Origin: Eledone cirrhosa
Taxonomy: Eukaryota
Direction: 5' to 3'
Assembly: GCA_964016885.1 (NCBI GenBank)
Contig: OZ024742.1
Location: 17,298,001 to 17,362,000, forward strand
Length of the DNA: 64,000 nucleotides
A program made the translations under genes and the position numbers. The notes below the pieces were generated by a model. The model ran no database searches and was not told the DNA's origin. It was given only the letters and a program-made list of their open reading frames with translations. Each line of letters starts with the position of its first letter. Position 1 is the first letter of the stretch. This document shows, piece after piece, positions 12,952-54,965 of this stretch.

Positions 12952-14128
12952 TATCTATATATACATATATATATACATACATATATATATACATATATAT
13001 ATATATATATGGTGGCTATATAGATACATACATACACACATACATATATACACACATACATGCATATATACATACATACATAATGTACTTCATTTGTGAA
13101 CTAAATTTACAGAATTAATTCTGTACAGTACCATGTGTGTGTGTGTGTGTGTGTGTGTGTGTGTGTGTGTGTGTGTGTGTGTGTGTGTGTGTGTGTGTGT
13201 GTGTGTGTGTGTGTGTGTGTGTGTGTGTGTGTGTGTGTGTGTGTGTGTGTGTGTTTATAGCCAGTTGTTGAATAATACTAATTATTACACGTGGTGCCTG
13301 TTTCAGCACCAAATGCTTTTACGTGAATTAGATATTCGGTGTTAAAATGTGTTAACACCGACACCAGCTGTTCGCTATTGGCCTAATATTCTGATTGATT
13401 ACATTAATAAAGTTGTTGCAGTTTCAGTTCAACGTGGTTTATTTGTAATCATGCGGCAAACATGATTCACAAATGACCAGCTTGAAACTTTCATCTAGGA
13501 TCGATTTCCTCATCAGATACAATAAATATTAGAATCATAATATGAAAATTTCTGAAATCAGATGTTCATTTATTGATGTTCCCATACCCGACAAATGATA
13601 CATATCTGAGAGAGATTACCTTAGTCTAATCTCCATTGAATTTGATGAGCAAATCTCTCCTAGAGACAAGCTGATAGTAATCCATTAATGAACTAACAGC
13701 GAAACATATGTTATACGTGATTGGTAATAAAATATTTTGAACTAAAAACATAGATTTCTTTCTTAATGTAAAGCATATATATATACTTACACACACACAC
13801 AGGTATATATATATATATATATATATATATATATATATATATATATATATATAGAGAGAGAGAGAGAGAGAGAGAGAGAGAGAGAGAGATAGATAGATAG
13901 ATAGATAGATAGATTTCTTTATTTACCATAAAGGCATAAAAAGAAGGGACAGATACGAAGGGGGAGTTTACATAAAATCGAGTAAAAAGGGTATAAAATG
14001 AAAATAATCGAAAATAACCTCAAAAGGGAGGGGACGTGATGGGGGATGCACACACACCCGAAAAAGTGTGCAATCCTTTGCCCGGGGAGCACATGGAGAA
14101 GGTGCTCCCCTCTCCTTCACTTCTTTAC

Positions 14129-52100: not shown

Positions 52101-54965
52101 CTTACAGGAACCATGTCAACAACTTAGTTAAGCAAAAGTTGACAGGGGGATCATCAACAACAGAAGGTCGGGGGCTCTCAAAAGAGAGATTAGAGTAACT
52201 TCGATAGAGTTCAGCAAAGAACTAGCGTTAGAGAAAAATAGAAAGAAGGGGGAGCTGGTAGATAAGTTAGACGAGGCTATTTGTAGTGGCATTGCAACTG
52301 ACGTGCTAGCGGCTTGAATTGCTTTAGACCATTTCTTCAATGCGAAACACGAAGGTTGCATTGTCAGAGCTAAGGCGCGTGCGCTGAGAAATGTGGTAAT
52401 AAAACCACAATTCGGTCTTTGGCGGACCGAGACGGACACGAGATAAGCGATTCCAAGCGGATGTGTGAGGCCTTTCGCCAGCACTCTCCTCAGTTGTCCG
52501 GGGAGAGTGGCGAGTCAAAGATAGTAGCGGATTCAGTCCCTACCTTGACGACTTGCCGCGCATCACGACGATCGACGCTGAGCACTGCGAAACGCCGATT
52601 ACTTCAGGCGAAATTCAGGACTCCCTTGTCGACTGCATGAGGCGCAAGTCACCCGCTTTGGATGGCCTGCCCAACGAGTTTTACGTAAATATGCCAGACT
52701 TGTTCTCCGAACTCCTCGAAGCACTCTACTGAAACTGGCAGCAAAATGGGAGTATTCCCAGTTCTGTGAGCGGGTGAGTGGTGACGCTGATAAGGAAAGA
52801 CGAGAACAAGAGGGATACATTAGACAACTTCCGGCCCATAACTCTGCTCAGCGCAGAGTTTAAGATTTTGGCCAAGGTGTTAGAAAAGAGATTGGCGCTT
52901 GTCGTCGAGGATTTGGTTGGGGAGGCACAAACTTGCGCACTCTCATCCAGTTCCATACACGACAATCTCCAACTCATGCGATACATCATAGAGAGGGTAG
53001 GGTGTAAACCTGGCTTCGGTGGGGCACTGATCAATTTAGATCAATCGAAAGCATTCGATAGGGTTGACCATTGGTATCTGGAGTTTGTCCTCAAAGCGGC
53101 TGGTTTCGGCCCTGTCTTCAGAAGCTGGATCGCTGCAATGCACAGCGGCACACGCTCGGTGGTCAAGGTTAATGGCCACCTCTCGGAACCATTTCGGCTC
53201 TCCCGATCGGTCCGTCAAGGGTGCCCTCTCTCGTCCCTTCTGTACGTATTGACTCCCGAGCCTTTACTGCGGAAGCAGAAGCTGTTGCAGAGCATCACAC
53301 TCGAACCGGGACGTGGAAAGGCTGTGTCGGCTTCTGCGGACGACATCACCGTGATGGTGTCGGACACCTCAGAAATCGAAGTGGTCGGCACCTTATTGAA
53401 GGAATATGAAAGGTTGACAGGAGCCAAACTTAACCCGGAAAAGTCGGTGGGCTTGCAGCTCGGAACCTGGAGAGGCAGCCGTCCAACAGCGTGATAAGGC
53501 GCTGGACGGACGGACCGGTAAAGTTGCTCGGGGTTTGGTTCGGACCAGACCTCCAGATGGAAAAGAATTGGGACGAGGTAACCAGCAGAGTAGCCAGTAT
53601 ACCCAAAAATGGGCTGGGAGGAAGCTATCACTGAAAGGTCGCGCGGAGGTGGCGAATGCGTACATCGCGTCCGTCATCTACTACCGGCTGACCGTCGTGC
53701 CTTGCCCCCGTCCGCGCCTCGTCAAGTTGGAACGGCTCCTCTTCAAATTCTTGTGGAGGGGACAAGTTCCGTTGGTGAGGCGGTCCATCTGCTGCCAGCA
53801 CCCTCTACGCGGAGGGCTGGGCATGTTGTGGCTAATGATGTGCAGACATGTGTTGAGGCTGTGACACATCTACAGATATTCTGCCTAAACGGTGAACAGG
53901 TGTGGTCGACGTTTATCAGACGGGCCTTTCTGCAGCTTGTTTATTTGACTGAGCTGCAGTCCTGGGTCAAGCAGAGACCAAGGCTGGATGACTGGCACCT
54001 GGAATGTTGCCAGGCACTCACTGCCCTCTACCAAGCGGGCAATGCGATCAGTGGAACTTCCACTCTCGAGTTCTATAGAGGATTAGTGGTGGGCAAGTGC
54101 GATGACGCACTCGGAGAAGCTTTAGGCCTCGACGAAGTCGAACTGACCAGTCTGTACCGGAGGACTTTCGAGACGGGGACGATGAACAATTTCTAGAAAT
54201 TCCTCACTTGGCAGTGCTACCGGGAGGCACTGCCGGTTCAGGATAAACTCTACAGGCACGGAAGTGCTGTCAGACGGACCTGCCCAAGAGGCGAAACCGT
54301 TCTGCACGCACTTCTCCAATGTACGTGCATTACTGACTTATGGAGTTATGTCGAACACCTACTGTCGCGTGTGGAACGAATCCGGCTATCGGCCGAGACC
54401 ATAGTGAAGATAGATCCACCACCTTACTTAGGTCAAGAAGAGCAGGAAATTTTACTATGTCTGGTGGCCGTTGCGAAAGAGGTTATATGGTGGACCAGAT
54501 TAAAAGGAGTGAAGACAGACACTTTTCTATCCGGCCAATCCCTCATCAACTTCTTTAATTTCACCTGGAAAGGAAGGTGAGGGTGGAGAGAGAGAAGTGC
54601 TTCCTCCCCAGTACATTTGCTAAAAGTGGATGAATGTGGCGAGAATGGCCCGTGTGAATGGGCCTACTCTGGTCATGCGGCTGTAGGCTAGCTAACTTGA
54701 GGAGAGGGGTGCTCTCCCTGGGTGCCCTAGAAGCGCAGGGTGGTTCAGGATTGGTGGGAAACCTGAGTCACCCCAGGGTCGTCCAACTCCTATCGGGGAA
54801 TTTATTTTGTTATATTTATGCATAGTTTATTTTATATTTTTATATCTTCATTGTTAAATTAGTCTTGCCATTGTGCACTTTTACTCGACCTTATTGTAAC
54901 CCCCCACAGTCCCTGTCTTTGTATTGTCCCCTACATGTCGGCCCTTGTGGCTAATAAATGAAATC
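49132..54965 (+). mobile_element. Full-length degenerate L1/Tx1-clade LINE (T6) inserted in (ATT)n
   Basis: Fragmented ORF1 (~49337-51294) and ORF2 (51324-~54686). 3' end TAATAAATGAAATC followed by (ATT)n; (TTA)n upstream. Confidence 0.9.
51324..54686 (+). pseudogene. T6 ORF2 (APE-RT), multiply frameshifted
   Basis: GSLNLRGL, AGDWN, FRPITLL, DQSKAFDRV, QGCPLS; YADD is changed to SADD. Confidence 0.88.

Follow-up and report, generated by a model that had tools for sequence, protein, structure and literature searches.

The 64,000-nucleotide stretch of the Eledone cirrhosa genome analyzed here (assembly GCA_964016885.1, contig OZ024742.1, positions 17,298,001 to 17,362,000; hereafter the window) contains six copies, T1 to T6, of a single lineage of long interspersed elements (LINEs) of the L1/Tx1 type, which encode an APE endonuclease, a reverse transcriptase (RT) and CCHC fingers and lack a poly(A) tail. 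Read on the element strand, T1 to T4 have TATC-type DNA at both ends and T5 and T6 have ATT at both ends, always in a fixed orientation. Junctions collected across the genome suggest that the youngest of the lineage's target changes may have been inherited through flanking DNA, with the endonuclease unchanged.

The best-preserved copy, T5 (38534–44554, minus strand), is an intact, full-length ATT-type element of 6,021 bp whose nearest copy is 99% identical, and it is enclosed by its target repeat, with (AAT)28 adjoining its 3’ end (38450–38533, plus) and (AAT)10 its 5’ end (44555–44584, plus). Its second open reading frame, ORF2 (38796–42215, minus; 1,139 aa), encodes the APE endonuclease, the RT and a C-terminal CCHC finger, and ORF1 (42251–44341, minus; 696 aa) has one CX2CX4HX4C knuckle and no Pfam match at E 0.01. 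The other ATT-type copy, T6 (49132–54965, plus), is near full-length and decayed, belongs to subfamily A2 (labels such as A1, G1, M and N are our own) with its nearest copy at about 90% identity, and lies between an imperfect ATT array at its 5’ end, the tail of a SINE-like (short interspersed element-like) 3’ end (49102–49131, plus), and an ATT array at its 3’ end (54966–55019, plus). T1 (13912–19749, minus) is a full-length TATC-type copy of subfamily G1, with a frameshifted ORF1, stops in ORF2 and a nearest copy at 97%, and its target repeat appears as (GATA)6 at the 3’ end (13888–13911, plus) and (GATA)18 at the 5’ end (19757–19828, plus). The remaining TATC-type copies are fragments: the 5’-truncated T2 (29198–30175, minus) retains ORF2 aa 904-1138 and the 3’ untranslated region (UTR), T3 (30238–30405, minus) is 167 bp of 3’ UTR only, both with TATC DNA on either side, and T4 (35552–36935, minus) is a truncated composite of two C-terminal fragments of subfamily G4, with a variant terminus.

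The lineage has the architecture of the L1/Tx1 superfamily, with a separate ORF1 and an ORF2 in which an N-terminal APE is followed by the RT and a CCHC finger lies at the C-terminus. In T5 ORF2 the APE matches PF03372 (aa 21-209), the RT matches PF00078 (aa 510-753) and there is a zf-RVT match, and the best solved-structure matches of the endonuclease are L1 endonucleases. Target-primed reverse transcription (TPRT) has been established for this class of retrotransposon, and we infer that it also operates here, where a fixed 3’ end, variable 5’ truncation and target-site duplication are all found. The lineage likewise shows the target-sequence preference that is frequent in the Tx1 clade. Its RT is 35-38% identical to TX1-named or pol-like fish proteins and 29-34% identical to relatives from Ciona, fungi and algae, and in a tree of rows that included neither Xenopus Tx1 nor mammalian L1 it falls in an unresolved L1/Tx1 polytomy, outside a group of fish proteins (support 99/98) that we take to contain the microsatellite-targeting families Kibi and Koshi. 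Because the RT is only 35-38% identical to the fish proteins and lies outside their clade, microsatellite targeting probably arose here independently of the fish Tx1 group. Among close relatives, the only one with a name is a protein of Argonauta hians, 73% identical across the RT region, and a search of the ESM Atlas returned only unnamed RT/APE clusters. A sister group of ORF2 proteins, 40-44% identical (P0002-P0037), occurs in large clusters on long ENA contigs, and a metagenome scan for the flanking loci of these relatives found no locus. Sequence words nearly identical to T5 ORF2 (38650-42300) were present in 13 runs from 10 organisms, each holding at least half of the sampled words (share 0.52-0.88), which reflects either close relatives or horizontal spread; AAT repeats adjoin the T5 end in contigs of two of the four other organisms examined (X6, X9), nothing being shown for the remaining two (X7, X10).

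To collect junctions throughout the 3.0-Gb genome we used exact matching of terminal patterns. Two 3’-end patterns gave 8,754 and 1,755 matches (more than 10,000 ends), against 8 and 0 for controls, which is beyond chance. This bears out the assignment in the first-pass annotation of T1-T4 to GATA/TATC and T5-T6 to ATT in fixed orientation. Only 43 of the 3,533 T5-type 3’ ends were not followed by A, none of these 43 being followed by TATC, and the first 100 of 2,573 T5-type 5’ ends were all preceded by an ATT array. Among the first 100 of 830 T1-type ends, TATCTAT followed in 87, (TC)n in 2, AATAT in 1 and ATT in none, so that the main targets are TATC and ATT, not the (TC)n or (TTC)n into which Kibi and Koshi insert. 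The common poly(A)-less terminus proposed earlier was borne out as well, since of 226 distinct ends examined not one begins with a run of at least five A. The accompanying description of an AATAAA(A/T)GAAATC-like end holds in general, with GAAATC in 210/226 ends (variants being limited by the search expression) and AATAAA 6-8 nt before the element end; it fails for T3, which ends in GAAATG, and the T4 end, previously ascribed to decay, is a subfamily variant that recurs in copy L104.

The ends also yielded several side observations. A small satellite at L072 and L073 derives from the element’s 3’ terminus, inverted copies included, and short old 3’ remnants of further subfamilies (L230, L231, L235-L237, L007) are flanked by ATC/ATT mixtures or SINE heads. 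Four copies of the T4-type subfamily G4 (L331, L344, L346, L350) lie in (TA)n arrays and are 99% like TATC-flanked ones; such flanks occur in about 15 of the first 100 G4-type rows and could reflect a further switch or mere tolerance.

Whether the adjoining repeats are targets or tails can be read from 5’-truncated copies, from which we excluded 7 rows with element DNA as neighbor and 5 rows below 85% identity. The copy’s own repeat lay within 25 nt of the 5’ junction in 17/36 ATT-type and 29/48 TATC-type truncated copies, and a cross-type repeat in none (window background 0.5%); for full-length copies the figures were 13/15 and 21/23. Target-site duplications, mostly 12-20 bp, begin at the first base after the element, and TATC-type copies showed duplications of at least 11 bp in 27/48 cases, compared with a mean of 18.1 and a maximum of 24 in 500 shuffles. 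Since the same repeat stands at truncated 5’ junctions, and since unique DNA beyond the repeat is duplicated in L110, L112, L127, L132, L140, L012 and L222, the repeats are insertion targets and not tails made by the element, as first proposed. L110 is a TATC-type copy at a single TATCTAT inside what appears to be the reading frame of another LINE, with a clean 16-bp duplication. At the AATAT-flanked locus L144, an empty-site check in one run found the filled junction, and the joint that would skip the element was absent among the rows shown.

The first-pass annotation had further suggested that the terminal ATC, which merges with both repeats, may prime integration, and this idea was rejected. 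The ATC is the element’s own; the duplication begins immediately behind GAAATC, and in front of its upstream copy there is often no ATC but GTT, AAC, GGT or others, which excludes priming by the terminal ATC.

Phylogenies of ORF2 (FastTree; IQ-TREE with LG+G4), together with an RT-only tree, place all TATC-type copies, including subfamilies M and N described below, in one ORF2 clade (FastTree 99; IQ-TREE 97/98). The ATT types form a group at SH 90 in FastTree, are left unresolved in IQ-TREE (69/82) and are paraphyletic in the RT-only tree. The proposed division into two branches thus survives in part: target type tracks phylogeny, with the TATC clade at 97/98, but the trees do not firmly support a clean split into two sisters, and because the ATT group is weakly supported or paraphyletic, TATC targeting may derive from an ATT-targeting ancestor. 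Nor are there only two targets, as had been implied; ATT and TATC are the main ones among at least four, the others being a 72-bp minisatellite (subfamily M) and AATAT (subfamily N).

Subfamily M, nested in the TATC clade, inserts at one position of its minisatellite, in register. Its search pattern had 62 matches, of which 45 continue with ACT and 17 apparently belong to a different TATC subfamily, as did those examined; 12 full-length copies share one 5’ junction in the array. The M copies (L067-L071, L213-L220) are almost all full-length, with a 5’ junction that falls 7 nt short of where the 3’ cut lies in the 72-bp unit, an offset that suggests either a 5’ target extension or a fixed deletion, and one of them, L219, ends in non-satellite DNA starting ACTT. 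What had looked like the TATC “sister” of M proved to be a different subfamily, only about 80% alike, so M does not provide a clean test of a target switch.

Such a test is offered by subfamily N. One TATC subfamily has 1,165 ends, the first 100 of which are followed by TATCTA (76), near variants (8) or AATAW (16; W, A or T), and AATAW-flanked copies number 114 genome-wide. These N copies are about 99% identical to their TATC-inserting sisters and nested within the TATC clade. They form a clade in sequence, as a silent marker 528 nt from the end (-528) shows: allele A was found in 26 AATAW-flanked and 0 TATC-flanked copies and allele G in 2 AATAW-flanked and 34 TATC-like ones, with 29 untyped, in a set whose loci were partly picked by flank and whose tandem copies are non-independent. 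Duplications of at least 11 bp starting with AATA occurred in 16/36 truncated N copies, against 0.3 after shuffling, and in 13/33 when four tandem copies are counted once. Because AATAT lies inside the duplication, it must have pre-existed in the target, and the base before the AATA site is a pyrimidine in every such duplication with readable context. The flank profile is AATA(T) at positions 1-5, of which positions 1-4, and W at position 5, were search requirements for many of the loci, and then AT-rich and base-unspecific.

Set against 24 full-length sisters of the TATC type, N differs at four fixed nucleotides over 5.8 kb, two of them silent; the other two change D932 to Y in ORF2, between the RT and the CCHC finger, and Q494 to R in the low-complexity, Q/T-rich tail of ORF1. 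The majority sequence of the N endonuclease equals that of the TATC sisters, and over aa 1-240 the TATC-site copy L320 is identical to the AATAT-site copies L064 and L187. Since the endonuclease is identical between some AATAT and TATC copies, this youngest switch appears to have needed no endonuclease change. The ancestral D932 is present in L285, which has a clear duplication, and in L292, both of them at AATAT sites.

The 5’ ends of N are informative as well. All three full-length N copies found (3/3) have AATAT flanks and start with a G followed by a TATC remnant, so N RNA carries flank sequence at its 5’ end. The G of L281 has no template in the flank, as would be the case for a copied cap, and given the remnant and this untemplated G, transcripts likely start inside the upstream repeat. 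Two full-length N copies are situated within a 59-bp minisatellite, immediately after a variant of TATCTAT, a site that is a plausible candidate for the founding off-target N insertion.

Taking these junctions together, we consider it probable that such poly(A)-less L1/Tx1-type elements choose their sites in two steps, an endonuclease nick and a pairing of flank-derived RNA. AT-rich DNA would be nicked by an endonuclease of loose specificity, which may read the T that all four target consensus sequences have at positions 3 and 5, following a pyrimidine (the DNA being AT-rich). The mRNA would then supply the second step. Polyadenylation cleavage generally falls some 10-30 nt downstream of AAUAAA, and since AATAAA lies only 6-8 nt from the element end, the polyadenylation site would fall in the flank and the mRNA would read a few bases past the element into the flank of the parent copy, in the order GAAAUC, flank bases, poly(A). 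The last 4-5 bases of the nicked strand would pair with these flank bases and so determine which nicks are used, and reverse transcription would begin at the element’s last base, leaving the poly(A), beyond the priming site, bypassed and uncopied. The N flank profile, with its motif confined to the first five positions, agrees with such short pairing and resembles the 4-nt “snap” of L1 priming (PMC3649969). Daughter copies would thus land next to the parent’s motif and pass it on, and since each daughter would lie beside the same motif, a rare off-target full-length insertion could found a lineage with a new target, with protein changes possibly following later. We lean slightly towards the wider view that target specificity is inherited outside the element, that one off-target insertion founded the AATAT class with the endonuclease unchanged, and that N may represent a natural RNA-redirectable integrase caught in mid-switch.

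Several observations weigh against this interpretation. Read-through is a prediction from junctions and the position of AATAAA. N flanks are AT-rich beyond base 5 and match no single parent sequence, so any pairing would have to be short. About half of the truncated copies have neither repeat nor duplication at the mapped 5’ junction, possibly through 5’ deletions, later insertions or imperfect references, and ATT-type duplications of at least 11 bp (15/36) are not distinguishable from shuffled sequence (mean 12.1, maximum 17); here, too, loci were selected partly by flank and tandem copies are not independent. D932Y is present in 7/7 long N copies and Q494R in 4/4, and either could alter targeting, while the two copies with ancestral D932 are truncated, their ORF1 is unreadable, and they could also have moved in trans. 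Finally, many residues, some of them in the beta-hairpin loop (position 193 I/M or S), distinguish the endonucleases of the ATT and TATC types, and in published work endonuclease swaps shift specificity in TRAS1/SART1 and the Tx1L endonuclease is sequence-specific (PMC1919474, PMC1950540).

These last points could be assembled into an account by protein alone, in which diverged endonucleases produce the ATT, TATC and minisatellite targets and D932Y or Q494R causes the AATAT switch. Targeting determined by the endonuclease is the standard model (PMC4494074, PMC1919474), both substitutions are fixed in long N copies, and ATT and TATC endonucleases are only 61-62% identical (68-75% within the TATC group), with many branch-specific residues, as the loop comparison envisaged by the first-pass annotation also found at position 193. 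For the deep ATT/TATC difference, this divergence of about 40% leads us to think that protein and flank probably both contribute. As a full account, the AATAT switch included, we find protein alone rather doubtful: the N endonuclease equals that of its TATC sisters, L285 and L292 reached AATAT sites with ancestral D932, Q494R lies in a low-complexity tail, and a single change located beyond the nuclease would need to alter two bases directly at the nick. A quite improbable alternative is that N RNAs depend on mobilization in trans, by a relative that escaped our sampling and has an AATAT-cutting endonuclease. Mobilization in trans by Tx1 proteins has been proposed for SINEU (PMC4494074), and of the more than 10,000 copies our sample covers a few hundred. 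Against it, N has its own intact ORF2 (L063, L064, L187), sisters 99% identical were not sent to AATAT sites, and no other AATAT-flanked subfamily appeared in the end-pattern listings, single rows aside.

The two remaining explanations deny targeting itself. It could be argued that the element itself produces the repeats, as tails or heads, upon near-random insertion, given that full-length copies such as those of N start with a short piece of repeat and that many truncated copies lack it at the mapped 5’ junction. We hold this to be very improbable, because the same repeat accompanies diverse 5’ truncation points and duplications reach unique DNA beyond it, M copies sit in register in a minisatellite, ATT arrays belong also to SINE tails and to an unrelated LINE with a restriction-like endonuclease (RLE), and L083 and L110 run directly into non-repeat DNA. 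Barely credible is random insertion followed by survival or recombination in microsatellites, a passive accumulation of the kind suggested for Drosophila Waldo-A/B (PMC3812793), since copies that are 99% alike have junctions exact to the base and fixed in strand, and cross-type flanks do not occur.

The proposed pairing of flank RNA with the nicked target has partial precedents. The 3’ end of R1Bm RNA reportedly anneals to its nicked target. In R2Ol a read-through flank of the RNA does so (PMC6530143, PMC6795142), and L1 priming involves a 4-nt “snap” (PMC3649969). As in our model, a few flank or tail bases in these systems anneal to the primer and define where reverse transcription starts; there, however, pairing improves the use of a site that the endonuclease or poly(A) dictates, whereas here the pairing seems to alter the site itself and to be passed on via the daughter’s flank. 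As for targets, Kibi inserts into (TC)n, Koshi into (TTC)n and crocodilian Tx1 families into (TTCC)n/(TTTC)n (PMC4494074, PMC3812793). Like the Eledone lineage, these are APE-type L1/Tx1 elements in microsatellites, with related families on different units, but the present targets, (ATT)n, (TATC)n, AATAT and a 72-bp minisatellite, are different ones. A repeat library of Octopus vulgaris lists 13 recently active “L1-Tx1” families (PMC13282606, Table 1), which probably include relatives of this lineage; the word “target” does not occur in the main text of that paper. The suspicion that the families might be undescribed was strengthened, as we found no report in the literature searched of ATT-, TATC- or AATAT-specific Tx1-like families, which may nevertheless be catalogued in Repbase or Dfam, and none of a flank-inherited target switch; Fig. 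3 of PMC4494074 lists further Tx1 targets that may bear on novelty.

Target changes in site-specific retrotransposons are usually ascribed to evolution of the endonuclease. Because the young AATAT clade has an unchanged endonuclease, target switching is directly testable here, and with a divergence of about 1%, four fixed nucleotides and intact natural copies on both sides, the switch can be dissected. If correct, inheritance through the flank would explain why poly(A)-less ends stand beside a canonical AATAAA, would offer a route for many target changes among Tx1-like families and would suggest that a few bases of RNA can direct where a LINE inserts. Leaving the mechanism aside, the literature searched had no earlier target record for families specific to (ATT)n, (TATC)n or a minisatellite.

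The AAT arrays of T5 and T6 are shared with elements of another kind. Between the two copies lie RLE-type LINEs, a family separate from T1-T6, which by motif we presume to be Dong/R4-like. One of them (44585–48082, plus), with RT and CCHC followed by (AAT)12, is oriented opposite to T5; a second fragment, followed by an AAT array, lies at 48119–48972 (plus), and a 3’ fragment of the same type (38203–38449, plus; start approximate) meets T5’s AAT array from the opposite strand. Two such RLE-type families share the T5/T6 arrays from the opposite strand, forming mixed tandem clusters. Dong/R4 elements target (TAA)n (PMC3812793), and Dong-R4 is active in Octopus vulgaris (PMC13282606, Table 1). 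They use the same microsatellite as T5 and T6, and in the window RLE-type neighbors share its arrays, but they differ in having a C-terminal restriction-like endonuclease and a single ORF and in using the opposite repeat strand.

An abundant SINE-like element of about 200 bp (49006-49101 in the window; many loci including L001, L003 and L017) ends in GTAGAAACA, after which ATT-like DNA follows in 84/100 tails (loci chosen with an ATT bias). ATT-type Tx1-like copies are often placed in its tail; the SINE-like element may be mobilized by ATT-type elements or may supply them with targets; upstream of T6 two SINE-like 3’ ends stand back to back. Elsewhere, the window contains a 52-bp minisatellite at 24543-25333, with 97% matches among its 15 copies, and an array of some 190 copies of a 7-bp, CTCACAT-type unit at 27256-28559.

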